From: Alphaproteobacteria bacterium
Lineage (GTDB): Bacteria; Pseudomonadota; Alphaproteobacteria; UBA828
Reading direction: 5' to 3'
Length of the DNA: 64,000 nucleotides
NCBI GenBank assembly: GCA_963422645.2
Contig: CAXXVO010000005.1
Coordinates: 288,001 to 352,000, forward strand
How positions within the stretch are numbered: position 1 is the stretch's first letter; each line of letters starts with the position of its first letter. The notes under the pieces were generated by a model that saw only the letters and a program-made list of their open reading frames with translations, was not told where the DNA came from and searched no databases. Shown here one piece after another: positions 960-57,680 of the stretch. Made by a program: the position numbers and the translations under genes.

Positions 960-1343
960 ATGAGCGGGCTCAAGTACAGCAAGGAACACGAGTGGGTGCT
1001 GGTGGATGGCAATGTCGCCACCGTCGGCATCTCCGACTACGCGCAGGATCAGCTCGGCGACGTGGTCTACGTCGAGCTGCCGGAGGTGGGCCGAAGGGTC
1101 GCCCAGAACGAGGAGGCCGCCGTGGTCGAATCGGTCAAGGCCGCGAGCGAGGTCTATGCGCCGGTCTCGGGCGAGGTGGTCGAGGTCAACCAGGCGCTGG
1201 AAGACGACCCCGCGCTCGTCAACGGCGACCCGACCGGCGAGGGCTGGTTCCTCAAGCTCCGGCTGAGCGCGCCCGGCGAGCTGGACGGGCTGATGGACGA
1301 GGCGGCCTACGCCGACTTCGTCGGCGGGCTCGGCGACGATTAG
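960..1343 (+). CDS. gcvH: Glycine cleavage H protein
   Basis: ATG at 960 after GGAGGA; KYSKEHEW and lipoyl motif [13 protein letters not shown]. Confidence 0.97.
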
Positions 1344-1369
1344 TTTCGTCGCTTGAATAGGCGACGAAA
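1344..1369. other. Intergenic hairpin between gcvH and gcvP
   Basis: TTTCGTCGC-N8-GCGACGAAA, perfect 9-bp stem; no U-tract on the + strand, so function is uncertain. Confidence 0.4.
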
Positions 1370-1431
1370 AGGCATTTGCGGGACGCGGCACCCATAAGCC
1401 GACGTCCGCCGACAGGGAAGGAACGACCGCG

Positions 1432-4326
<2,895 letters not shown>

Positions 4327-4596: not shown

Positions 4597-5421
4597 TCAA
4601 TACTCATCCTCCGCCGCTCTTGCCTTACCCGGTTGACCCTCGACGGTTATTGCCCCTTCGCCCTGATAAATGAGGTCGAAGCACGTAGCCGCAGCCTTTA
4701 GCCATGCTACGCGCCCCTCTATGGACCACACCGTGTTTGGGCTGGGAAGGGTTTGTAGCAAGCCCTCGACGAACGGATGTCGAGTTCCACCACCGCCGCC
4801 GTTTTCGGCACGCCTTGGTGGATCGTCAATTTCATTGGGCGGTTGCGGCGGCGGCGCTCCCTTATTCTCAGCGAAGCCGGGTTTCACCAATCGATTCCTG
4901 CCTTGGTTGAAATACCCGGCAGATTGCGCTGACCGCTCAAATGATGACCGAGCCTTTCCGGTCTGCTTTTGGGCAACGCCTAGAACATGGAACTCTCGTT
5001 CAAGTGCGGCGGCTGGAGGAAGAGAATTGCCGCGATACTTCTCAAACACGGCGCGGAATAGAGGTACCTCTAAGAACGCCTCCACCTTTGCCGCACTCGC
5101 CTGAGAAGAGTCCACGATCCTTAGACCAAGGTCGGTCAGCTTATGAACTCCATGAGATTGACTCTCAATCAGGCCAAACATTTTGGATGCGTAGACGCGC
5201 AGTCGATAGCTGCTGCTCTTTTGGCTTGATGAGAGCCAAGGGGCGAGCTGATCGTCTGCACACTCGCCGGCACTCACATTCTTGTGGATAGCGGAGGCTA
5301 GCTCCACCGCCTCATCCAGGGTCTGGTATGGGAAACCGATGCTGGACCGCTCTCGCTTGGTCTCGCTCCGTTCCGCTTTGGCTCCCGAGATGGGCTCTTG
5401 CCCTTGTGCCGAACCATCCAT
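4597..5421 (-). CDS. Hypothetical protein, possible winged-helix N-terminus, AT-richer than neighbours
   Basis: 274-aa ORF with globular composition (FPYQTLDEAVELA...FGLI...LTDLG) filling the gap between gcvP and the adenosyltransferase gene. Confidence 0.75.
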   Translation of the reverse strand: MDGSAQGQEPISGAKAERSETKRERSSIGFPYQTLDEAVELASAIHKNVSAGECADDQLAPWLSSSQKSSSYRLRVYASKMFGLIESQSHGVHKLTDLGLRIVDSSQASAAKVEAFLEVPLFRAVFEKYRGNSLPPAAALEREFHVLGVAQKQTGKARSSFERSAQSAGYFNQGRNRLVKPGFAENKGAPPPQPPNEIDDPPRRAENGGGGGTRHPFVEGLLQTLPSPNTVWSIEGRVAWLKAAATCFDLIYQGEGAITVEGQPGKARAAEDEY

Positions 5422-5574
5422 CTGGTTGCCGCCTTTCCGATCTAGTGGTTAGTGCCTCGGCTCAGCGTGCGACTCTATTGGATAGTGGCGGATAGCGCAA
5501 GCCCTGTTGAAGGGGTGCGGATAGGAATGTGGATATGACCGGATATGGCGCTCCCACCCGCCTTTGCGGGCGCC

Positions 5575-6129
5575 CTACCTGTTGGCGCCGGGGACCCAGA
5601 GGGTGTCGGTGGCGCCGTCGTCGTTGAGGTGGCGGGCGAGCACGAAGAGGTGGTCGGAAAGCCGGTTGGCGTAGATTACCGCCAGCGGATTGACCGGCTC
5701 CTGCTCAGCCAGCGCCGTGATCAGCCGCTCGGCGCGGCGGACCACCGTGCGCGCGAGGTGAAGGGCGGCCGCAGCCCGGCTGCCGCCGGGCAGGACGAAT
5801 GACTCGAGCGGCTTCAAGCGCTCGTTGAGGGCATCGATCTCGCTTTCCAGCCGGTCAATCTGCGACTGGACGATGCGCAAGCCTTCGTCGAGCGAGCCCG
5901 GCCGGCAGAGGTCCGCGCCGAGGTCGAAGAGGTCGTTCTGGATGCGCTCCAGCATCGCATCCGCCTCGCCCTCGGTCTCCAGCCGCGCGAGGCCGATCGC
6001 CGCGTTCGCCTCGTCCACCGTGCCGTAGGCCTCGACGCGGGCGTCGTGCTTCTTCACACGCGCGCCGCCGCCGAGCGAGGTCTCCCCCGCATCGCCGCCA
6101 CGGGTATAGATCTTGGTGAGTCGGACCAC
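5575..6129 (-). CDS. Cob(I)alamin adenosyltransferase, PduO type
   Basis: KIYTRGGDAGETSL, EAYGTVDEAN, ARTVVRRAER, NRLSDHLF motifs. Confidence 0.95.
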   Translation of the reverse strand: MVRLTKIYTRGGDAGETSLGGGARVKKHDARVEAYGTVDEANAAIGLARLETEGEADAMLERIQNDLFDLGADLCRPGSLDEGLRIVQSQIDRLESEIDALNERLKPLESFVLPGGSRAAAALHLARTVVRRAERLITALAEQEPVNPLAVIYANRLSDHLFVLARHLNDDGATDTLWVPGANR

Positions 6130-6132
6130 GGC

Positions 6133-6327
6133 CTACTTCTGGACGACGAACACCAGGAGCGCGAGCAGCGCGATCGCCGCGAACTGGAGCCCGACCCGCC
6201 AGCGCATGAAATGGTTGCTCTTGCTGTTCTTGCCGCCGGAATACATGGCGCCGAGCCCCATCACGAGTGCGACCACGACCGCACCCATCAGGACGTAGAC
6301 GACGATTTCGAGAATTTCGGCCAGCAT
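6133..6327 (-). CDS. Twin-transmembrane-helix small protein (HIG1-like)
   Basis: Two hydrophobic helices around SNHFMRWRVGLQF; typical neighbour of PduO-type genes in alphaproteobacteria; ATG at 6327. Confidence 0.85.
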   Translation of the reverse strand: MLAEILEIVVYVLMGAVVVALVMGLGAMYSGGKNSKSNHFMRWRVGLQFAAIALLALLVFVVQK

Positions 6328-6482
6328 GGCAGTCCTCGCGGCCCCCGGGCCGGCAATGAATCCGTCCCTCGGCAGGTTATAGCGCGTCCCGCCGGTGCTG
6401 CCCACGACCTTCGCGCATGGTTGGCCCTATAGTGACCGGAACCCTTATCCGAGAGAGAAAGCGAGAGAGGAGCGAACAAGCC

Positions 6483-7511
6483 ATGGCGGACACCAACTGG
6501 CGCAATCGCAAGACCCTGATTCTCAGCCGCAGCGAAATGGTCGGCCTGCTCGAGCCTGAGGAGTATGTCCGCTGCGTGGAGACAGCCTTCCGGCGCATGG
6601 GGGAAGGCCGCGTCTACATGGAGCCTAAGGGTCATATCGTGCTGGACAAGTATCCGGGCGAGTGGGAGATCATGCCCTCCTACATCGAGGAGCCGGAGGC
6701 CGCACCCGCCGCCGCGTGCAAGTGGGTCTCCATCCGTTTCGAGAACCGCGCCAGGTTCAATCTCCCCACCGTGTTCTCGATCCTGATCTACACCGAGCCC
6801 GAGACCGGCTTCCCGCTCGCCATCGTGGACGGCACCCATCACACCCTGATGCGCACCGGCGCGTCCGGCGCAGTCTCCGCGAGATGGATGGCGCGCGAGG
6901 GCTCCTCCGTCCTTGCCCTGGTCGGCGCCGGCGACGTGAACACCGGCGCCTTCCGCACCTGCGTCGCCACGCATGACTGGAAGGAGGTTCGGGTCTGGAG
7001 CCGGACCCAGGCGACGCTGGATGCGTTCATGGCGAGCGAGCAGCCAAACCATCCCGATCTCGTGATCAAGCCGTCCACCCTTCTCCAAGATGTCGTGCCG
7101 GGCGCCGATGTCGTCGTCACCGGGACGACAGGCGAGACGCCGGTCCTCGGCAACGAACTGATCGAGGACGGCATGCACATCGCAGCCCTCGGCGGCGGTC
7201 TTGCGGGCACGCAGGAGCTCGATGTCGCGATCCTGCAGCGCTCTCGAATCATCGTCGACGACATGCGCCAGTGCGTCACCGACGGCGAGATCAACGTGCC
7301 GCTGACCAAGGGCGAGCTGCGGGAGAGCGACGTGGCGGGCGATATCGGCGAGGTGATCACGGGCAAGATCCCTGGGCGCACGTCTGCGAGCGAGGTCACG
7401 CTCTTCGATTCGACGGGAATCGCGCTCCAGGATTCCGCGACTCTGCCGCTCGAATACGAACGCGCCATCGCGGCAGGCGTGGGCATCGAAAAGAAGATGA
7501 TTTCGACGTGA
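6483..7511 (+). CDS. Ornithine cyclodeaminase / mu-crystallin family protein
   Basis: GFPLAIVDGTHHTLMRTGA, Rossmann VGAG, TLFDSTGIALQD; ATG at 6483. Confidence 0.92.
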   Translation: MADTNWRNRKTLILSRSEMVGLLEPEEYVRCVETAFRRMGEGRVYMEPKGHIVLDKYPGEWEIMPSYIEEPEAAPAAACKWVSIRFENRARFNLPTVFSILIYTEPETGFPLAIVDGTHHTLMRTGASGAVSARWMAREGSSVLALVGAGDVNTGAFRTCVATHDWKEVRVWSRTQATLDAFMASEQPNHPDLVIKPSTLLQDVVPGADVVVTGTTGETPVLGNELIEDGMHIAALGGGLAGTQELDVAILQRSRIIVDDMRQCVTDGEINVPLTKGELRESDVAGDIGEVITGKIPGRTSASEVTLFDSTGIALQDSATLPLEYERAIAAGVGIEKKMIST

Positions 7512-7632
7512 GCGCGGCGGGAGCGGCAGCCCGTTCGGTAACGGGTCTCGATCGCACCGGCCGCGCCTTGTGCCGGGCGAAGCGCGCCGCCATGATCCGC
7601 GCGTCTTTCAACAGGCTTGGCGGGGAGAGAGC

Positions 7633-8289
7633 GTGAGTGCCCTGACGGGACCGGAACGGCCGCCGGCGGGCGGCGGTCAGCCGCGCAAGCTGGTCCTGCT
7701 ACTGCATGGCCTCGGTGCCGACGGCAACGACCTGATCGGCCTCGCCGAGCCCTGGGGGCGGCTCGTGCCTCACGCCTGCTTCGCCGCGCCGGACGCGCCG
7801 GAGCCCTGCGACATGGCACCCACGGGGCGCCAGTGGTTCAGCCTGAGCGACCGTTCGCCCGAGAGCATGGCCGACGGCGTCGCCCGCGCAGCAGACGCGC
7901 TCAACGCCGATATCGACGCGCGGCTCGCGGCGCTCGGGCTCGGCGAGCAGGATCTCGCACTGGTGGGCTTCAGCCAGGGCACGATGATGTCGCTCCACGT
8001 CGCCTACCGCCGCGCCGCACCCTGCGCGGGCGTGTTGGGTTTCTCCGGCCGCCTCGTGGGCGGTGAGCACCTGAAGAGCGCGCTGCGCGCCAGGCCGCCG
8101 GCCTTGCTGATTCATGGCGACGCGGACGATTTGGTGCCCGTGGGCGCGCTCTTCGAGGCGGCGACCCTCCTCGGCGCCTGCGACGTGCCGGTGCAATGGC
8201 ACGTGAGCCGGGGCATCGGCCACGGCATCGCGCAGGACGGGCTGGAGTTCGGCGGACGCTTCCTCCGCGACATCCTGGGCGAAGGCTGA
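7633..8289 (+). CDS. Phospholipase/carboxylesterase (alpha/beta hydrolase)
   Basis: LHGLGADGNDL, nucleophile GFSQG, HGDADDLVP, GHGI; GTG at 7633 after GGAGAG. Confidence 0.92.
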   Translation: MSALTGPERPPAGGGQPRKLVLLLHGLGADGNDLIGLAEPWGRLVPHACFAAPDAPEPCDMAPTGRQWFSLSDRSPESMADGVARAADALNADIDARLAALGLGEQDLALVGFSQGTMMSLHVAYRRAAPCAGVLGFSGRLVGGEHLKSALRARPPALLIHGDADDLVPVGALFEAATLLGACDVPVQWHVSRGIGHGIAQDGLEFGGRFLRDILGEG

Positions 8290-8414
8290 ACGCCGCGCTG
8301 GAGCGTGTCCGTCGTTGACGGACGCGCGACAGGCCGCGACCGCGGCCCGCCGCTTTGCGGCGCCCTCGCGGAGGTGCCGGCCGCAGGCCGGCTACCGTGA
8401 GCGATAAAGTGAGT

Positions 8415-21756: not shown

Positions 21757-30369
<8,613 letters not shown>

Positions 30370-30569
30370 GGTACCCCTCTCGGACTCTCGGCTCCGGCCG
30401 CGGCTTGAGCGCCGCGGCGGGCCGTGGGTTAGTCGTTACGTGCGGTGCGGCGGCACACGCCGCGCAGCCGTGGCCGCGCGGAGTCGTACCCGCCCACGCC
30501 GCAGCGCGACAGCGGGGCCGGTGCTACCCGGCACGTGACCGGGCGTGCGCCGGCGATAGCCAATCGTCG

Positions 30570-30947
30570 CTACTTGACCTCGACGGTCGCGCCGGCAGCT
30601 TCGAGCTGCTCCTTCATCTTGGCTGCGTCGTCCTTGGACACGTCTTCCTTGACCGCGTTCGGCACGCCCTCGACCAGCGCCTTGGCCTCCTTGAGGCCGA
30701 GGCTGGTGATCGCGCGCACTTCCTTGATCACGTTGATCTTCTTCTCGCCGAAGGATGTCAGCACCACGGTGAATTCGGTCTGCTCTTCGGCCTCCTCGGC
30801 CGCTGGCGCGGCACCGGGGGCGGCGGCGATGGCAACGGGGGCGGCCGCGGAGACCCCCCACTTCTCCTCGAGCATCTTGCTCAACTCGGAGGCCTCGATC
30901 ACCGTCAGGGTCGAAAGCTCGTCTGCAATTTTGGCTAGATCAGCCAT
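30570..30947 (-). CDS. rplL: 50S ribosomal protein L7/L12
   Basis: [33 protein letters not shown]. Confidence 0.98.
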
Positions 30948-30995
30948 GTCGTTAGTCTCCTGGGGGGTTGGACTATTCTTGGTGTGCGTTGGCTA

Positions 30996-31538
30996 TTAAT
31001 CGCCGGCTGGGTCGCTCTTGCTGGCGGTGTCTCCTTGTTCAGAATAGGCGTTGAGGACGCGCGCGAGCTGGCCTGCCGGCGCGCTCAGCACGGCGGCGAT
31101 CTTGGTCGCCGGCGCATTCAGCACACCGATCAGCTGGGCACGTAGCGTATCGAGCGAGGGCAGCTCTGCGAGCGAGCGCACATCGCCCCGATCGAGCGCG
31201 GCGCCGCCGAGGGCGCCGCCCACGATGATCAGCTTCTCGTTCCCCTTGGCGTAGGTCACCGCGACCCTGGCCGCGGCCACCGGATCGTCCGAATAGGCGA
31301 TCGCGCTGGTGCCCGTGAAGAGGTCCGCGAGCGGGGCGAAGGACGTGCCTTCGACCGCCCGCTTCGCGAGCCGGTTCTTGGTGACGCGGAAGGTGGCGCC
31401 GGCCGCGCGCATCTGGCGGCGCAGGTCGGAGGCCTCCGCCACCGAGAGCCCGCTGAACTGCGTGACGACGACGAGATTCGTGTTCTCGAAGATGCCGCGC
31501 AGGGCTTCGACGATCTCTTCCTTCTTGACTCGTTCCAC
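30996..31538 (-). CDS. rplJ: 50S ribosomal protein L10
   Basis: RVTKNRLAKRA, LAELPSLDTLRA; operon position. Confidence 0.97.
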   Translation of the reverse strand: MERVKKEEIVEALRGIFENTNLVVVTQFSGLSVAEASDLRRQMRAAGATFRVTKNRLAKRAVEGTSFAPLADLFTGTSAIAYSDDPVAAARVAVTYAKGNEKLIIVGGALGGAALDRGDVRSLAELPSLDTLRAQLIGVLNAPATKIAAVLSAPAGQLARVLNAYSEQGDTASKSDPAGD

Positions 31539-31598
31539 GACTTCCTCCGGCTTATCCGGCAGACGCGAGGCGCAGACACGCGCCGCTCACGCCGCCAG

Positions 31599-32309
31599 TC
31601 ACGATGCCGCTGTCTCCGCCTGCAGGGCGGCGACGTCGAGCTTCACGCCCGGCCCCTGGGAGGAGCTGAGCGCCGCCCGCTTCATGTAGATTCCCTTGGC
31701 GCCGCTCGGCTTCGCCCGATTGAGCGCGTCCACCAGCGCGCGCGCATTTTCGGCCAGCGCCTGATCCGCGAAGCTCGCCTTGCCGATGCCGGCGTGGACG
31801 ATGCCGGCCTTCTCGACCCGGAACTCCACCTGGCCGCCCTTGGCCGCCTGCACGGCCTCGGTCACGTCGGGCGTCACCGTGCCGAGCTTCGGGTTGGGCA
31901 TGAGCCCGCGCGGGCCCAGAATGCGGCCGAGCTTGCCGACGATGGGCATCATGTCGGGCGTCGCGATGCAGCGGTCGAATTCGATCTTGCCGCCCTGGAC
32001 CTCGGCTGCGAGGTCCTCGTCGCCGACTATGTCGGCGCCTGCTTCACGCGCGGCCTCGGCCTTGTCGCCCTTGGCGAAGACCGCGACGCGCACGGTCTTG
32101 CCGGTGCCGTGGGGGAGTGCCACGACGCCGCGCACCATCTGGTCCGCGTGGCGGGGGTCGACGCCGAGCCCGACGCTCATTTCGACGGTCTCGTCGAACT
32201 TCGCCTTCGCGCCCTGCTTCACCAGCGTGATCGCCTCGCCCAGCACATAGGTCCTGTCGCGGTCGATCCGCTCCTTGGCCTGCCGCAGCCTTTTTCCGAT
32301 CTTCGCCAT
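31599..32309 (-). CDS. rplA: 50S ribosomal protein L1
   Basis: [23 protein letters not shown]. Confidence 0.98.
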
Positions 32310-32314
32310 CGCCC

Positions 32315-32746
32315 TTAGCCCACCACCTGGATGCCGATGGACCGCGCCGACCCTTCGATGATGCGGCAGGCGGCGTCCATATCGTCGGCGTTGAGGTCTA
32401 CCATCTTCTTCTCCGCGATCTCGCGAACTTGCGCCTGCGTCACCTGGCCCACCGGGTCGACCCGGCCCACCGTCTCGGAGCCCTTGTCGATTCCCGCCGC
32501 CTTCTTGAGGAAGAAGCTGGCCGGCGGGCTCTTGGTCACGAACGAGAATGTCCGATCGTGATAGACCGAGATCACGGTCGGGATCGGCATCCCCTGCTCG
32601 AGGTTCTGGGTCTGCGCGTTGAAGGTCTTGCAGAACTCCATGATGTTGAGCCCTGCCTGACCCAGCGCCGGGCCGATCGGCGGCGACGGGTTGGCTTGCC
32701 CCGCCGGCACCTGCAGCTTGATCGTCCCTGTGACTCTCTTGGCCAT
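32315..32746 (-). CDS. rplK: 50S ribosomal protein L11
   Basis: [24 protein letters not shown]. Confidence 0.98.
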
Positions 32747-32764
32747 GTTGCTCCCGCCCTACCC

Positions 32765-33343
32765 TCAGGCCTTCTCGACCTGCGCGTATTCCAGCTCGAC
32801 CGGCGTCGCCCGGCCGAAAATCGATACCGCGACCTTGAGCCGCGCCCGCTCCTCGTCGATCTCCTCCACCAGTCCGCTGAAGGAGGTAAAGGGGCCGTCG
32901 CAGACCCGCACGGTCTCGCCGATCTCGAAGATGACCGAGGGCTTCGGCCGCTCGACCCCATCCTTGATCTGCTTCAGCACGCGGTCCGCCTCGTCGTCGC
33001 TGATCGGCACCGGCTTGCCGCCGCTCCCGAGAAAACCGGTCACCTTCGGCGTATTGTTGATCAGGTGCCAGGTTTCGTCGGTCATGCTGATGTGCGCCAG
33101 CACGTAGCCGGGGAAGAACTTGCGCTCCGACTTGACCTTGGCGCCGCGCCGCATCTCGACGACCTCTTCCGAGGGCACCATGACGTCGGCGATCAAGTGA
33201 TCGAGGCCCTGCTGACTGGCCTGCTCGCGGATCGAATGCGCCACCTTCTTCTCGAAGCCCGAGTAGACGTGGACGATGTACCAGTGCCGCGCCGGCCCCT
33301 GGCCGTCATCCATGTGCGCCTCTGCTGCCGGCATGTCCGTCAT
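32765..33343 (-). CDS. nusG: Transcription termination/antitermination factor NusG
   Basis: [24 protein letters not shown] domain, [12 protein letters not shown]. Confidence 0.98.
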
Positions 33344-33537
33344 CCGCCGAGCCCCAGAATCGCCCGCACCCCGATGGAGAGCACCTGATCAATCAGGAAG
33401 AAGAAGATTGCCATGATAACCACCATGATCAGCACCATGATGGTGCTGATGACGGTCTCCTTGCGGGTGGGCCATGTGACCTTGCCAATCTCCTGGCGTG
33501 CTTGGCGCAAAAACTCGAGCGGCGGCGTGCGGGCCAT
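33340..33537 (-). CDS. secE: Preprotein translocase subunit SecE
   Basis: [13 protein letters not shown] followed by one TM helix. Confidence 0.96.
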
Positions 33538-33565
33538 GGTCAGCGCCCGCCCCTACCTGCACAGA

Positions 33566-33641
33566 TGGCAGGAGTGGAGGGTCTCGAACCCCCAACCTCC
33601 GGTTTTGGAGACCGGCGCTCTACCAATTGAGCTACACTCCT
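33566..33641 (-). tRNA. tRNA-Trp (CCA)
   Basis: 76 nt; anticodon arm CCGGT-CT-CCA-AA-ACCGG, GGTTCGA T-loop, encoded CCA end. Confidence 0.97.
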
Positions 33642-33675
33642 AATCCGTTTGCGTGCTGCGGCGGGATGCCGCGCT

Positions 33676-34866
<1,191 letters not shown>

Positions 34867-51314: not shown

Positions 51315-51449
51315 GTAATGCTTCCGTTCTCAGGTGATGGATGGTGATTTCACCGATTGAGTGTCCGCTTCCAGTCTCGTCGGAGAGGCCGCAGCCAGAT
51401 GTCCCTCCTGGGCTCGGCCCGCTTCATGTGCGTGTCGTAGCGCCCGCGC
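51315..51449 (-). repeat. Left 135-bp inverted repeat (inverted copy of the right end)
   Basis: Reverse complement of 57546-57680 with one mismatch. Confidence 0.93.
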
Positions 51450-51494
51450 AAAAGCCTCTGGTAACGCCGCCGGTGATTCGATATCGTCTCGCCC

Positions 51495-53933
51495 ATGGCG
51501 ATGCGAGACGAGGATTTCGGGACGGCGCTGACACCGACCGAGGGGGACGAGGCGATCTGGTCGCCCCCCATGTCGGCGCCGGCGAGCGAGCCGCGCGACT
51601 GGCAATCTCTGTGCGAACAGGCGCAGGCGCGGGCGGAAGCAGCGGAAGCGCGTGCGGAAGAGTTGCGCTGGGCGGAAGTCGCCGCCCGCAGCGATGCGGG
51701 TGCGTGGAAGTCGCGGTTCAAGGCCTGCCGGCAGAGGCTGAGCGAGGCCGAGGAAGAGACCGGGGACCTCCGCCGCGCGGCCAAGGACGTGCCGGCCTTG
51801 CAGGCCGAAGTGGCGCACTTGCAGGAGTTGCTCTCCGAAGCCCGCAGCGTATCGAGCGAGTTCGGCACGATCGAAGCGCTGCGCGACGAGGTTGCTCAGT
51901 TGCAAGAGGCCCTGGCGTCGAAAGCCCGGAAGGACGCGACGGGGCCACTGTCGAGGGAGAATGCCCGGCTCCGCAAGACCCTGGAGCGGTCGCAGGGACA
52001 GAAGGACGAGGTCGCGGCGTTGCGCGGAGAGGTCTCGGCGCGGCGCAAGTCGGAGCGGGCCGCGCAGACGGCGCTGTCGAAGGAGAGCATCCGGCTGGGC
52101 AAGGCGCTGGAACGGACGCAGAAGCAGAAGGACACGGTCAAGGCGCTGCGCGAGGAAGTCGATTCCCTGACCCGGGAGACCCGTCGGCAGAACCGGGAGA
52201 ACGGCCGGCTGCGCCGCGAGCTGGAGTGGTTGCAGGGCATCAGGGCGACGGCACGTGGGTTGTCCGACGAGGTCGAGCTGCTGCGCGCGGAACTGGCGGA
52301 ATACCACGACCAGACGAACTTCATCGATTGGCAGGACAGGCGCATCGTCGACTTGCAAATTGCCCTGGATACGTCGGCCTTCAAGACCGAGCGGCTGGAG
52401 GCCGAGCTTGCCGAACGTCCCCTGCTGCCTGCGGCCTTGAAGAGATTGCGCCAGCAGGAGAAGACCATCGAGTCCCTGCGGGCCCGGATCGAGACGCTGG
52501 AAGAGGAGCTGGCCAAGCTGCGCTCGAGCCGGGCCGTCCTGTCGAAGGCGCTCCACGGCAGGAAGAGCGAGCAGCAGCAGAAGCCCGGTACGGGGCGCAA
52601 GCGCGGCCAGCAACGCGGCGCGCCCGGCCACGGCCGCACCCCGCGGCCCAAGCTCCAGGAGAAGAAGGAACGGCGCAACCCGCCGAAGGATGCGCGCATC
52701 TGTTCCTGTTGCGGCAAGCCCTATGTCGCCAACGGCGAACGCTCCACGAGCCTGATCGAGATCGAGGTCAAGGCCCACATCCGCAGGATCGTGCGGCCGC
52801 GCTACCGCCGGGGCTGCGAGTGTGCGTCCTCGCCCCTGGAAGCGATTGCGCCGCCGGTGCCGCGGCTGTTCCCCGGAACGCTCTTCGGAACCAGCTTCTG
52901 GGCACGGTTCCTGTTCGAACACTGTGGGTGTCTGCGCCCGCTGTGCCGGGTCGCCGCGTGGTACGGGGACCAGGGGCTGCCGGTCTCGCCGGGTACGCTG
53001 GCCAACAGCCTGAAGCGCTTCGTGCCGCTGTTCGACCCGCTCTACGAGGCGATCCTCGCGCACCAGAACACCGCGGCGTTGCGCCATGCCGACGAGACCG
53101 GCTGGCGGGTACAGGAGTTCCGCGACACCGGCCGTTCGAGCCGCGCCTGGCTGTGGGTCTCGGTCAGCAAGGATTCGGTCTACTACATCATCGACCCCTC
53201 GCGCAGCGCCGAGGTCGCAAGGACCCTGTTCCGCGACACCGCCTGTATCGTCTTCCTGGTCTGCGACCGCTACAGCGCATACAAAACGCTGGCGCGCGAA
53301 CTCGCCGGCAAGGTGATCCTGTGCTGGTGCTGGGCACATCAGCGACGCGACTTCGTCGACTGCGCGACCGGGCAGGAGGCGCTGACCGAATGGTGCCAGG
53401 AATGGGTCGAGCGGATCGCGCTCGTCTACCACCTGAACGACGAACGGCTGAAGCATTACGACCCCGCTCTCGAACGCCAGACACGGGCCTTCGACGCGGC
53501 GCAGCGCAAGCTCGGAAGGGCGGTCAAGCGCCTGTTCGCGGACGCCGAGGCGGAACTGGCCGGCCTGCCGGACAAGGACCGTCGGGCAAAGCCCTTGCGC
53601 TCGCTGCTCAACCACCGCGAAGGGTTGTGCGTCTTCGTCGACAATCCCCAGGTTCCGATGGACAACAACGCCGGGGAGCGGGCGATCCGCGGGCCGGCCA
53701 TCGGGCGCCGATTGAGCTTCGGTTCCAACAGCGAGGACGGCGCGAAGTTCACCGCGACCATGTACTCCGTCATCGGCACGCTCTCGATGAACGGCATCGA
53801 CGTGCCGCGCTGGCTGGAGGCATGGTTGAAGGCCTGCGCGGAGAATGGCGGCAAACCGCCCGACGACCTGTCCCCATGGCTGCCGTGGACGATGAGCGAG
53901 GCGCGCAGGCGCAAGTTCACGGCGCAGGAATGA
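51495..53933 (+). CDS. tnpC: IS66 transposase with a long N-terminal coiled coil
   Basis: HGRKSE, RGQQRGAPGHGR, Cys pairs, HADETGW, VCDRYSAY, DNNAGERAIR; 812 aa. Confidence 0.92.
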   Translation: MAMRDEDFGTALTPTEGDEAIWSPPMSAPASEPRDWQSLCEQAQARAEAAEARAEELRWAEVAARSDAGAWKSRFKACRQRLSEAEEETGDLRRAAKDVPALQAEVAHLQELLSEARSVSSEFGTIEALRDEVAQLQEALASKARKDATGPLSRENARLRKTLERSQGQKDEVAALRGEVSARRKSERAAQTALSKESIRLGKALERTQKQKDTVKALREEVDSLTRETRRQNRENGRLRRELEWLQGIRATARGLSDEVELLRAELAEYHDQTNFIDWQDRRIVDLQIALDTSAFKTERLEAELAERPLLPAALKRLRQQEKTIESLRARIETLEEELAKLRSSRAVLSKALHGRKSEQQQKPGTGRKRGQQRGAPGHGRTPRPKLQEKKERRNPPKDARICSCCGKPYVANGERSTSLIEIEVKAHIRRIVRPRYRRGCECASSPLEAIAPPVPRLFPGTLFGTSFWARFLFEHCGCLRPLCRVAAWYGDQGLPVSPGTLANSLKRFVPLFDPLYEAILAHQNTAALRHADETGWRVQEFRDTGRSSRAWLWVSVSKDSVYYIIDPSRSAEVARTLFRDTACIVFLVCDRYSAYKTLARELAGKVILCWCWAHQRRDFVDCATGQEALTEWCQEWVERIALVYHLNDERLKHYDPALERQTRAFDAAQRKLGRAVKRLFADAEAELAGLPDKDRRAKPLRSLLNHREGLCVFVDNPQVPMDNNAGERAIRGPAIGRRLSFGSNSEDGAKFTATMYSVIGTLSMNGIDVPRWLEAWLKACAENGGKPPDDLSPWLPWTMSEARRRKFTAQE

Positions 53934-54833
53934 CCGGCGCCATCGAGTGCCGGTACTACGGGCGCGACTTCACCGCCGAGGAGATGGCGCTCCTGCGCGT
54001 GCTCATCGCCGCCGGCCCACCGCCCAACCGCCATGCCCTGTCGAGGGAGTTCTGCCGGCGCATCGGCTGGTTCAAGCCTGACGGCGGGCTCAAGGACATG
54101 ATGGCCAGGGTGACGATGCTGGCCATGCACAAGGACGGCCTGATCGTCCTCCCGCCGCCGAAATGGCCGCGCCCGCCGCGCCCGCCGCGTCGGCCCATGG
54201 TCTTCGGACCCGACACCGAGCCGCCGGTGCATCCGGCGCCGACATCCCTCGACGCGGTTCGCCCGCTCGATCTGCGGCCTGCCGTCCGCTACAGCCGCGA
54301 GGGCAAGCTGTGGAACGAGTTCGTCGCCCGCTACCACTATCTCGGCTACAAGACCCTGGTCGGCGCCCAGATGCGCTACGCCGTCCACGACCGTGACGGC
54401 CGGCCCATCGCCATGCTCGGCTTCAGCACCGCGGCGCGAAAGCTCGCACCCCGCGACCGCTTCATCGGATGGACGCCGCAGTCGCGCGAGAAGAACCTCC
54501 CGCTTGTGATCGACAACCCGAGGTTCCTTATTCTGCCCTGGATCGTCATCCCGAACCTGGGCTCGCACATCCTCTCGCTCGTGCGCCGGCAACTGCCCGG
54601 CGACTGGGAGGCGCGCTTCGGAGCGCGCCCGGTTCTGGTGGAGATGAAGGCTTCATAATGCTTCTCCGTTGTGCAGGTGGGCGGGCGTTTCTACCGCATT
54701 GATAGAAAAGGCGGTTTGGATTCCGTTGTTGCCGCCGCGGCGACCTTTACATCGTGCCGGACGTGATTTTCCAGTATCGCACGTTGGAGGTGCGGATCTG
54801 CATCGGGCGTTTTGCCTGACGGTCCGGGCATGG

Positions 54834-57014
54834 TCACCCCCCATCACCGTTGAGCCCGCGCAGCAGCGGCAGTTCGTCCTCGACCGGCAAACGCACATAC
54901 AGTCCGCGCGTCTTGCCGCGGGTCACATGGCAGCTGTCCAGCCTGCCCGCCTTGATCCGTTCCCAGACCGTCTGCCGCGTGACACCCAGACGATCCATTG
55001 CCACAGCGAGGGGAACAAACCCCTCCGGAGGCGCCTCACGAAAGCGCTCGCGCAAGGTCGGGGTCATCCGGATCCGAAGAGGAGCACCTTCGATATCGGG
55101 CTGGGCAACCGGAACCAGCCCCTCGCGGATCCAGCGATAGATGGTGTCATCCGAGACTCCGATCTCCTTCGCCACATCGGCAACGCCCATGAGCACCGGC
55201 TCGTCCCCGTCGGGCTGGTAGGGCGCAATGCCATGGCGGCGACGCAGGCTGCCAACAAGCTCGGCCGTGAAATCCAGACCCCGTGCTGTGCGCCGTCCCT
55301 GGCGGGTGAGAACCTTCGCGGTCTCCCGGTCGTTGTAAAAGCATGACAGCTTGCGCACGAGCTCGACCGTGCTGCGCTCATCGCGCCGGGGTGTCGGAGA
55401 GCCCGCGAGCATCGGCAAAGTGATCTCGTCGATCTGCCCGCCACGCCAGCGCAATGTTGCCATGATCTCACGCTCCTGTCGCGCAAGCTCGATCGTCACC
55501 TCGTCGAGGAGGCAGGCGAGCAGGCGCTTGCGCTCGCGCATGGTCGTCGACGACGCCCCCCAGACCTGCGACAGGCGCGCGCCGAGACCCTCGAAAACCG
55601 CCGGGGCAGGGGCCGCGGGCTGACGCGCCCGTGCCGCCTCAAGCGCTTCCTGTGCAGCCTTCTCGGCGCGAAGCGCCTTCTCCCACTCGCGCTCCAGCGT
55701 TGCCGCAATCAGACGGTTGTCGGGATCGACCTGCTTGTAGCGCCGCTCGGCAAGCCGCGCCTCGTACCGGCAGTGCTCAAGATCCAGCTCCCAACGGCGC
55801 AACGCGCGCAGGCCGCGTTCAGCAACATCACAAGCCGCCTGCCGGGCCGCCTCCACCCCCGCCGGCGTGACCGCATCGAGAAACAGACGGGCAACTTCCG
55901 CATCAACGCGCTTGCCGCCTGTCGACCAACAACCGCCGCGCCGGCGCGCAGCATCGCGCTTGCGGCACTCATACCCCCAGCCCGTCTTGCTGTAGTAGAC
56001 GGTCATCGGCAATCCGCAGCCGCCGCAGACCGCGAGACCCTGGAGCAGAGCCGACCCTTCCCGCGCCGCGCCGCGGGCTCCGTCCGGAGCCATGTGGTTG
56101 CGGGCCAGCTGCTCCTGTACTTCAAGCCATTCTGCCCAACTGACATATCCCTCATGCTTCTCCGGCTGAAGAATATCCCAGCGCTCCTGGACCGGCCGCA
56201 GCGGCGCACCGTGACCAACGCCGCGTTTGAAGCCGTAGGCATAGGCGCCGCCCATCGCCGGGTTGGTGAGGATGCGGTACACCCGTTCATAGCGCGCCGG
56301 GCCCCATTCCAATGCTGCCCCCGGGTGCCGGCGAGAGGGAACATCCTCGCCCGCCTCACGCAGCAGCATCGTCGCCTGGCGGGCCGAACCGGCTTGCCGA
56401 AAACGCGCAAAGACCGTTGCAATCGCCGCCTGAACCCGGGCATCCGGATCCTTCCGCAAAGTCGAGCCATCCCGCACAAATCCGATCGGAACGCGCGAGT
56501 ACAACTCGCCACGAAGCGCCTTGTTCCGCTTTCCGCCCTCCATCCGGGCGCGAATAAGAGACAGCTCAGCGGCGCTCACGGTTCCCTTGATCCCCAGGAC
56601 AAGGGAGTCGTCGTCCCGGCTCGGGCAGTAGATGTGGCAGTCCTCAACCAGAACCGTGTCGTGCCTGCGACATAGATCGAGAAGCTGAAACCATTCCATC
56701 GTGTTCCTGGCGAGCCGCGAAACCTCAATCCCGAAGATGCCCCCGACATGGTCCCGGGCGATCAGGTCGCACATCTCCCGAAAGCCGCCACGCTCGCCGC
56801 GCGCCTTCTCGCTTGCGCTCTCGCCAAGATCGGCGTCGATCGTCCGTATCCGCTCGGCCGGCCAGCCAATCTCCCGGGCACGCTCGCCAAGCGCGTATTG
56901 GCGCAGCTGCGATTCCTGGTGCGCGTTCACTTGCAAGGGTGTCGACTGGCGAACGTAGACAACTGCAAGACGCTCAAGATGACGCTGGGTGATCTTCGAC
57001 GGATCGACCGTCAT
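54834..57014 (-). CDS. Large serine recombinase (catalytic, recombinase, Zn-ribbon and C-terminal HTH domains)
   Basis: KITQRHLERLAVVYVRQST, DADLGES, EVSRLARN, CGGCG, VDPDNRL; ATG 57014 with GGGAGG upstream. Confidence 0.94.
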   Translation of the reverse strand: MTVDPSKITQRHLERLAVVYVRQSTPLQVNAHQESQLRQYALGERAREIGWPAERIRTIDADLGESASEKARGERGGFREMCDLIARDHVGGIFGIEVSRLARNTMEWFQLLDLCRRHDTVLVEDCHIYCPSRDDDSLVLGIKGTVSAAELSLIRARMEGGKRNKALRGELYSRVPIGFVRDGSTLRKDPDARVQAAIATVFARFRQAGSARQATMLLREAGEDVPSRRHPGAALEWGPARYERVYRILTNPAMGGAYAYGFKRGVGHGAPLRPVQERWDILQPEKHEGYVSWAEWLEVQEQLARNHMAPDGARGAAREGSALLQGLAVCGGCGLPMTVYYSKTGWGYECRKRDAARRRGGCWSTGGKRVDAEVARLFLDAVTPAGVEAARQAACDVAERGLRALRRWELDLEHCRYEARLAERRYKQVDPDNRLIAATLEREWEKALRAEKAAQEALEAARARQPAAPAPAVFEGLGARLSQVWGASSTTMRERKRLLACLLDEVTIELARQEREIMATLRWRGGQIDEITLPMLAGSPTPRRDERSTVELVRKLSCFYNDRETAKVLTRQGRRTARGLDFTAELVGSLRRRHGIAPYQPDGDEPVLMGVADVAKEIGVSDDTIYRWIREGLVPVAQPDIEGAPLRIRMTPTLRERFREAPPEGFVPLAVAMDRLGVTRQTVWERIKAGRLDSCHVTRGKTRGLYVRLPVEDELPLLRGLNGDGG

Positions 57015-57165
57015 CGGCCGCCTCCCGATCCGCAATCCGAACCATCAGATCGGCCAGACCCTGCACGACGCGATCCCGGTCCGGAGCCGGAAACGCCAGC
57101 CACCGGTCCCGGCGCTCCTCCCACTCCATCAGCGCGATCAGCGCCAACTCCTGCTCCGCATCCAT
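56974..57165 (-). CDS. Small hypothetical protein upstream of the recombinase
   Basis: MDAEQELAL...WLAFPAPDRDRVVQGLADLMVR, helical; overlaps the recombinase start. Confidence 0.5.
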   Translation of the reverse strand: MDAEQELALIALMEWEERRDRWLAFPAPDRDRVVQGLADLMVRIADREAADDGRSVEDHPASS

Positions 57166-57469
57166 CGCGCCTGAGTTCCCTCTCATCAAGGTCATTCAGA
57201 AGATTAAGGAGGGTGAGGAAATCAGACAACTCTCCGATCAGGCGTGGTGCATCCTCGGGACGGGCTCCAAGGCTCGTCCATGCCGCTGGTATCCAACAAC
57301 AGCTGCCGTCCGGCATCCGAACCTTCAGAGTCCGGCCCCCGTAACCTCCTTTGCGCCGATCGAGAATCTCGATCGCCTCACCGTCGAAAGGATGCTTGTA
57401 GCGTCGAATGCGAACGGGCTCAGGAGCCTCGGAAGCCTGCAAGATAGTAGTCTGTGACGTTCGTGGAGA
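57011..57469 (-). CDS. Accessory ORF (DUF5372 / Y4bD-like); no SD-supported start in the integrated state
   Basis: VRIRRYKHPFDGEAIEIL...MPDGSCCWIPAAWT; TGA overlaps the recombinase ATG (ATGA); frame is open through the GTGGAGA core. Confidence 0.65.
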   Translation of the reverse strand, partial: SPRTSQTTILQASEAPEPVRIRRYKHPFDGEAIEILDRRKGGYGGRTLKVRMPDGSCCWIPAAWTSLGARPEDAPRLIGELSDFLTLLNLLNDLDERELRRDGCGAGVGADRADGVGGAPGPVAGVSGSGPGSRRAGSGRSDGSDCGSGGGR

Positions 57470-57545
57470 CCTTCGTCGAGACGCCCCGCTACACCGGCGC
57501 CGTCTACAAGGCATCCGGCTGGATCCGCGTCGGGACCACCCAGGG

Positions 57546-57680
57546 GCGCGGGCGCTACGACACGCACATGAAGCGGGCCGAGCCCAGGAAGGACATCTGG
57601 CTGCGGCCTCTCCGACGAGACTGGAAGCGGACACTCAATCGGTGAAATCACCATCCATCACCTGAGAACGGAAGCATTAC
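57546..57680 (+). repeat. Right 135-bp inverted repeat, including the DUF4338 3' end
   Basis: Ends ...GGAAGCATTAC, followed by the TSD. Confidence 0.93.

Follow-up and report, generated by a model that had tools for sequence, protein, structure and literature searches.

A large serine recombinase element whose predicted cofactor gene appears to be completed only by excision

Circular forms of the IS3, IS30 and IS110 families of insertion sequences (IS) carry junction promoters, and in other systems recombination falls within a gene of the element itself, as in the SSV1-type integrase gene that is split by integration and in mycobacteriophage integration-dependent immunity, where the 3′ end of the repressor is altered. 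For Tn4451 TnpX, ICEclc Pcirc and ICEKp1 P3′end, a promoter is reported to be assembled at the circle junction (PMC13023037). Here we analyzed a 64,000-nucleotide window of an alphaproteobacterial genome (contig CAXXVO010000005.1, positions 288,001 to 352,000) and describe a 2.8-kb large serine recombinase (LSR) element at window positions 54641–57467, which carries its operon on the minus strand and is inserted in a DruA-like gene. We estimate with a probability of roughly 0.75 that this is a minimal LSR element whose first cistron, open reading frame (ORF) A, spans the attachment site attP of the excised circle, is whole only after excision and encodes a circle-specific cofactor.

The two parts of gene A lie at opposite ends of the element. 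At the far end, an outward-pointing stub on the minus strand (54645–54667) carries a Shine–Dalgarno (SD) sequence GGAG (54667–54664), a 7-nt spacer and an ATG (54656–54654) that is followed by three further codons up to the repeat (MKPS). The body of ORF A, a DUF5372-like frame at 57011–57469 on the minus strand, lies at the other end. Its frame is open from the flanking DNA across the right repeat to a TGA at 57013–57011 that overlaps the LSR ATG (57014–57012), and no ATG or GTG precedes its HPF motif. The sole canonical in-element start before the conserved domain is a minus-strand TTG without an SD (57440–57442), which sits 16 codons before the histidine of HPF and is the only in-frame ATG, GTG or TTG between the repeat and this motif. 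Joining the element ends at the repeat produces an in-frame ORF of 4 + 152 = 156 codons, and in the integrated state the far-end ATG opens a peptide of 36 residues that reads antisense into the target gene. These features agree with a sequence-only reading of the window, which had proposed an accessory frame open through GTGGAGA, an unaided TTG as its only early start within the element, an outward GGAG-7 nt-ATG on the same strand at the opposite end, a 156-aa in-frame fusion, a TGA overlapping the recombinase ATG and no more than a short antisense peptide from the far-end ATG when integrated.

The same reading had placed the crossover within GTGGAGA, a placement that is correct and can be narrowed. 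Copies of this 7-bp repeat stand at 54638–54644 and 57463–57469, and comparison of attL with attR in three target variants and in a 92%-identical copy with the same ends in G061, together with empty sites for the left end, confines the crossover to the dinucleotide GA (54641–54642 and 57466–57467); the frame of the junction ORF is unchanged by this narrowing. The element's own genome contains 11 copies at 98.7–100% identity. Their 11 left junctions show two flank types in the last 7 bp (GGTGGAG and CATCGAG) and three upstream flank variants, and 10 of 10 right junctions in this genome read GTGGAGA before running into differing flanks. A 23-nt probe from the left flank detects 8 occupied and 13 empty sites in the same genome, Logan contigs of four public runs contain both empty sites and a 2836-nt repeat unit, and the deduced empty site at the present locus restores a target protein that reads ...RPVLVETFVETPRY... 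across the join. Site-specific insertion of this kind, with a short core shared by the two junctions and with exact empty sites, is as expected of an LSR element.

Conservation among homologs had been named by the sequence-only reading as the test of the in-frame fit. We compared 16 elements from plasmid records and genomes, which represent 7–8 lineages and six target genes, and fixed their crossovers independently of the hypothesis, using empty sites for the window element and for G233/G197 and otherwise the continuity of the split target protein. A far-end ATG lies 8–22 nt before the crossover, in frame with A and with no intervening stop, in 16/16 elements, a count that overstates independence because the elements share ancestry. 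The ATG stands at −14/−8, −11, −22, −10 or −9 relative to the crossover, always in frame, and the last 45 nt of the far ends contain 19 ATGs in the frame of A, 6 at +1 and 1 at +2. By these counts the in-frame fit exceeds chance, and the conservation test supports the earlier proposal that the accessory factor would be translated only from the excised circle. Most elements have an SD-like run (GGAG, AGGGGG, AAGGG, GAGGTG, AAGGAG or AGGTG) ahead of the proximal ATG; in Rhizobium K15/93 copy 1 and in K84 this run is weak or missing. ORF A proteins in alignment A1 share 24–51% identity with the one encoded here, and LSR proteins of three other lineages share 34–37%. In 14 of the 16 elements the deduced empty site yields an uninterrupted and recognizable target ORF; pWW53 and P. 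mandelii do not, their flanks being decayed, but they share their ends with two elements in which the target is restored.

For the IS110-type elements, a core read as AAGGG would leave the ATG out of frame and accompanied by a TGA, and this assignment was rejected on the evidence of seven empty IS110 sites in G233/G197 that show the core to be AC and the ATG to be in frame. Loci with an end or the LSR missing or degenerate were left out of the count: L014 and L062 (short contigs) and L078 in G316 (no LSR downstream). Also outside it are L088 in G013 (where the LSR stop borders directly on an ABC ATPase), L085, L087, L058 (LSR fragmented), L112 (a remnant), L083 (interrupted), L115, L082 (a third G233 copy), the G061 copy, L109 and L110. 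The family is rare in random genome samples, occurring in 5 of 61 relatives, 6 of 401 genomes of the class and 3 of 401 of the phylum, the element's own genome included.

We next considered where translation of A could begin in integrated elements. One explanation holds that integrated elements produce A from a start codon in the neighboring target DNA, with the ribosome entering the frame through attR. The frame is indeed open for 80 codons before the histidine here and the flank contains GTG and ATG codons, but in 11 of 16 elements the open stretch of the flank lacks a start codon, several have flank stops within 19–30 codons of the histidine, and in L056 a flank stop lies four codons from the core. 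The copies in the element's own genome moreover differ in their right flanks, and in all 14 elements with an open target frame the LSR operon runs antisense to that gene. We therefore regard a start in flanking DNA as highly improbable. Six of the 16 elements have no ATG, GTG or TTG before HPF when integrated, neither within the element nor in the open flank.

Existing annotations of gene A bear the marks of this arrangement. A P-x-x-V-x-I strand located 5–10 residues before HPF is kept in 28 aligned ORF A sequences, and because this upstream strand is conserved, the methionine at −5 in some database entries reflects truncated calls and not the true start. In other entries the N-terminus is extended at length by unrelated sequence, which is what gene callers running into flanking DNA would produce. 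Plasmid gene tables either leave ORF A uncalled or begin the coding sequence (CDS) after HPF. In S. meliloti pSmeAK21b (L114), a CDS annotated as 'DUF5372 family protein' at 5040–5252 starts past HPF, the histidine of which is at 5007, and the downstream start was evidently chosen by the pipeline because no start exists upstream. The split genes thus go unannotated or truncated because gene callers cannot reach a start codon situated at the opposite end of the element. The L014 element, which occupies the same target and encodes an ORF A protein 51% identical to that of the window, offers no canonical start from the core up to its HPL motif; its far end was not found in G010, a genome that is 62% complete.

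Besides the shared ancestry of the 16 elements, several observations weigh against a gene A that is completed only by excision. Because the far-end ATG falls within one arm of attP, an imperfect palindrome, recombinase binding could account for part of the conservation of this ATG. Some internal ATG, GTG or TTG occurs 2–16 codons before the histidine in 10 of 16 elements, TTG 57442 aligns within one residue of the methionine of homolog P0002, and weak initiation at this TTG may occur in the integrated state of the present copy. No circle junction or back-joint was found in the Logan contigs of the four runs, in which rare forms are dropped, and a simple scan of the integrated sequence found no sigma-70-like promoter. 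A second explanation would treat the in-frame ATG and the SD-like run as side effects of the attP arms to which the recombinase binds, with A translated from an internal or non-canonical start (TTG 57442 in this copy) whether the element is integrated or excised. The internal starts of the 10 elements and the alignment of TTG 57442 with the P0002 methionine count in its favor, the arms are imperfect inverted repeats, and in three lineages the ATG at −14 is mirrored by CAG or CAC at +12, as this explanation would have it. We nonetheless hold it to be quite unlikely, given how the ATG and SD behave across the family. In the Mesorhizobium elements that target a reverse transcriptase (RT) gene the ATG stands at −14 and −8, and in pWW53-type elements at −11; both RT-targeting groups have an identical core-proximal GGATCC-AA, yet the ATG is shifted by 3 nt with the frame kept, and at −22, −10 and −9 elsewhere it is again always in frame. 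Four pWW53-type elements retain the SD (AAGGG) and the ATG while the spacer and second codon vary (CAG, AGA, CGC and CAC). The absence of any canonical start in six integrated elements also argues against translation in both states, and most internal starts, at 2–7 codons before the histidine, would remove the conserved P-x-x-V-x-I strand.

We then examined the protein encoded by A. Its match to PF17342 (DUF5372) is weak (18.3 bits, E 0.0023, under the gathering cut-off of 25) and an NCBIfam search with ORF A gave no match; homology to DUF5372 is found by sequence search through the relative P0002, which carries PF17342 and is the sole match of a word-indexed search. A profile-free search of representative proteins recovers 69 ORF A relatives at E ≤ 1e-3, a tblastn search with a G231-type ORF as query matches genes annotated 'DUF5372 family protein', and a 28-row alignment shows conserved HPF..G, LPDG and WT(D/S) motifs. 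No paper naming the DUF5372 family was found by full-text search of the collection used. An AlphaFold model of A predicts an SH3-like barrel (residues 19–61), a long helix (81–103) and a disordered tail, with a mean predicted local distance difference test score (pLDDT) of 75.9 and 59 residues at 90 or above. Foldseek comparison with the Protein Data Bank (PDB) reveals only a generic SH3, Tudor or chromo likeness (best E 0.061), and no solved recombination directionality factor (RDF) matches A by sequence or by fold in this comparison.

Modeling of A (residues 15–105) together with the LSR gives a score of 0.69 against 0.00 for the best control, a value reached by 58 of 80 solved complexes and by 2 of 110 mismatched pairs, counts that hold only roughly because the alignments behind the complex model are self-built (5 and 28 rows), which weakens the case for a cofactor. 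The runs agree in at least 79% of contacts with partner pLDDT of at least 68, and the model places the helix of A on LSR residues 330–335, 381–394 and 466–528, which form the zinc-ribbon domain and coiled-coil base. A is thus predicted to bind the LSR at these two regions, and the cofactor role that the sequence-only reading had assigned to the accessory protein gains backing from a complex model that passes its controls. RDFs are reported to act through the zinc-ribbon and coiled-coil region (PMC5814800, PMC11722253). The predicted docking site would therefore also suit a third explanation, in which A is a classical RDF that is made from the circle after a rare excision, acts in trans and bursts out other integrated copies, and the multi-copy state of the element, with 11 copies in its own genome, would provide such substrates. 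An RDF would, however, block reintegration of a circle that is unable to replicate, and the first excision would still need another factor. We consider a classical RDF unlikely; production of A only after excision would be paradoxical for such a protein, and this paradox also counts against a circle-only gene A should A prove to be one.

The remaining genes of the operon help to define how a circle-completed gene A could operate. The LSR (726 aa; 54834–57014, minus strand) has the domain order of its class in Pfam and NCBIfam searches, with an N-terminal resolvase catalytic domain (PF00239, E 8.5e-17, residues 17–170) followed by a recombinase domain (PF07508, E 2.4e-10, residues 196–306), a zinc ribbon (PF13408, E 4.7e-5, residues 323–362; 24.1 bits, just below the cut-off of 25.3), a coiled coil and a C-terminal excisionase-like helix-turn-helix (HTH). 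The C-terminus (54837–55190, residues ~608–726) contains one or two excisionase/MerR-like HTH domains, supported by HTH_17 (E 4.9e-10), by TIGR01764 (28.2 bits versus a cut-off of 28.8) and by an NCBIfam excisionase-like HTH at residues 609–637. A C-terminal excisionase/MerR-like HTH is unusual among serine integrases.

Between A and the LSR lies ORF B (73 aa; 56974–57195, minus strand), which starts at ATG 57195 or, more likely, at 57165, overlaps ~55 codons at the end of ORF A out of frame (57011–57200) and runs 40 nt into the LSR gene. ORF B is kept in L014 and is annotated as a hypothetical protein of 52–55 aa in plasmid relatives. The RT-targeting group gives ORF B its own strong SD and places substitutions at third positions of the B frame; G+C content at third codon positions (GC3) and substitution patterns favor B as the constrained frame of the A/B overlap in this group, with A appearing merely to stay open to the LSR start. 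The A frame is open exactly to the LSR start in 9 of 9 three-gene elements checked, Pseudomonas and Mycetohabitans plasmid relatives included, and its stop overlaps the LSR ATG (ATGA or TGATG) or, in G197, follows it by 6 nt. In two four-gene elements it is instead the far-end ATG and the LSR stop that overlap; this overlap is seen in K84 and S. meliloti. A 166-nt spacer separates the LSR stop from the far-end SD in the window element (54668–54833, minus strand) and has no ORF or promoter match; the distance from the LSR stop to the far-end ATG, 178 nt, is exceptional compared with 13–27 nt in most lineages. In the circle these genes form a head-to-tail ring, so a transcript that passes the LSR stop would run over attP into A.

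These features suggest a circuit that is reset by integration. Integration would cut gene A after codon 4–8, leaving the ribosome-binding site (RBS), ATG and first codons facing outward at one end and the start-less body of A at the opposite end. Excision rejoins both parts, so full-length A would come only from the circle or other junction-bearing DNA, and we infer that translation of A depends on excision. In this way the split-gene layout probably tells the element its state. Because the stop of A overlaps the LSR start in the three-gene lineages, translation of A should also raise LSR synthesis, a coupling that we likewise infer. A may act as a cofactor specific to the circle and commit the LSR to integration, and B, with its own RBS in both states, is a candidate excision factor. 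Since A would be made only after excision it cannot trigger that step, which favors an integration-committing factor, and the direction of its effect is our guess. A still broader proposal, which we offer as tentative and on balance doubtful, is that these 2.6–3.4-kb LSR elements are an undescribed and widespread class that parasitizes mobile elements and senses its own topology by a split gene: the circle would make A, A would counteract or displace the excision factor on the LSR and boost the LSR by stop–start coupling, and the resulting commitment to integration would destroy the A gene and reset the switch.

The element resides within another mobile element. Its host is an IS66-type IS (51315–57680, plus strand) bounded by 135-nt inverted repeats (51315–51449 and 57546–57680), which encodes an 812-aa IS66-family transposase, the N-terminus of which is a long coiled coil, and carries a DruA-like second gene. 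The DruA-like gene (PF14236, Pfam E 3.7e-27) is the one interrupted, with its 5′ part at 53948–54640 and its 3′ part at 57468–57645 on the plus strand. An identical 23-nt sequence at the LSR target site is present in at least 21 copies of the host IS in the same genome, of which 13 are empty and 8 occupied. Every lineage is inserted in a gene of another mobile element, the targets being IS66 TnpB, IS66 TnpC, IS21 IstA, an IS110 transposase, a group II intron RT and the DruA-like IS gene. The Ti plasmid of Rhizobium sp. K15/93 (L116, ~1000–3400 and 5000–8350) has two different LSR-DUF5372 elements within 5 kb. One occupies IS66 TnpC, the other IS66 TnpB, and each has an in-frame ATG at its far end.

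Further insertions have broken several copies of the element (G000 C8:600123–601175; C5 near 30303–34410 and 441762–447627; L059; G061 C1:3504291–3511889); the C8 copy contains an insert of ~1 kb and the G061 copy three inserts. A protein search with the LSR found two relatives at 87–88% identity, both full of insertions, and the LSR gene from Cupriavidus contains a transposase-bearing insert that is IS256-like as read from its translation.

A gene assembled by excision would offer a simple logic for a long-standing question, namely how a minimal LSR element that is unable to replicate as a circle tells the integrated from the excised state and sets the direction of recombination. DUF5372 gains a genomic context and, from the complex model, a likely partner in the zinc-ribbon and coiled-coil region of the LSR. 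The circle-completed ORFs also expose a systematic annotation gap in which such genes go uncalled or truncated. LSRs with a built-in state-dependent cofactor would be of interest as genome-engineering tools, and insertion only in the genes of other mobile elements makes this family a clean case of hyperparasitism.

We rate the separation of RBS, ATG and first codons from the body of a predicted cofactor gene as a new form of state-dependent expression in mobile elements; no description of a circle-completed LSR cofactor gene was found within the full-text collection searched. A signal formed only by joining the ends is present at the sequence level in all 16 elements, and the nearest parallel is Tn4451, which is likewise a serine-recombinase element whose excised circle joins its ends to create an expression signal for its own recombination genes. 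In Tn4451 the assembled signal is a promoter, whereas here an RBS, a start codon and the first 4–8 codons are joined to the remainder of a coding sequence, which specifies a predicted cofactor and lies upstream of the recombinase; no split promoter came up in the scan of the integrated sequence. ICEclc Pcirc, ICEKp1 P3′end and the IS3, IS30 and IS110 circles similarly use a signal at one end to drive a gene at the other only after circularization, but those signals are transcriptional and belong to elements with tyrosine or DDE/DEDD enzymes, in contrast to the translation start and ORF integrity at issue here. RDFs such as phiC31 gp3 and the SPbeta RDF resemble A as small proteins encoded beside the LSR, and A is predicted to bind the same zinc-ribbon and coiled-coil region, yet expression of A only in the excised state would be the opposite of what an excision factor needs. 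SSV1 and mycobacteriophage immunity share with this family a crossover inside an ORF of the element, so that integrated and free states encode different products; in those systems the change falls on the integrase, which is split, or on the 3′ end of a repressor, and here, in elements the size of an IS, it is the 5′ end, with the RBS and ATG, of a predicted LSR-binding cofactor that would be gained on excision and lost on integration.

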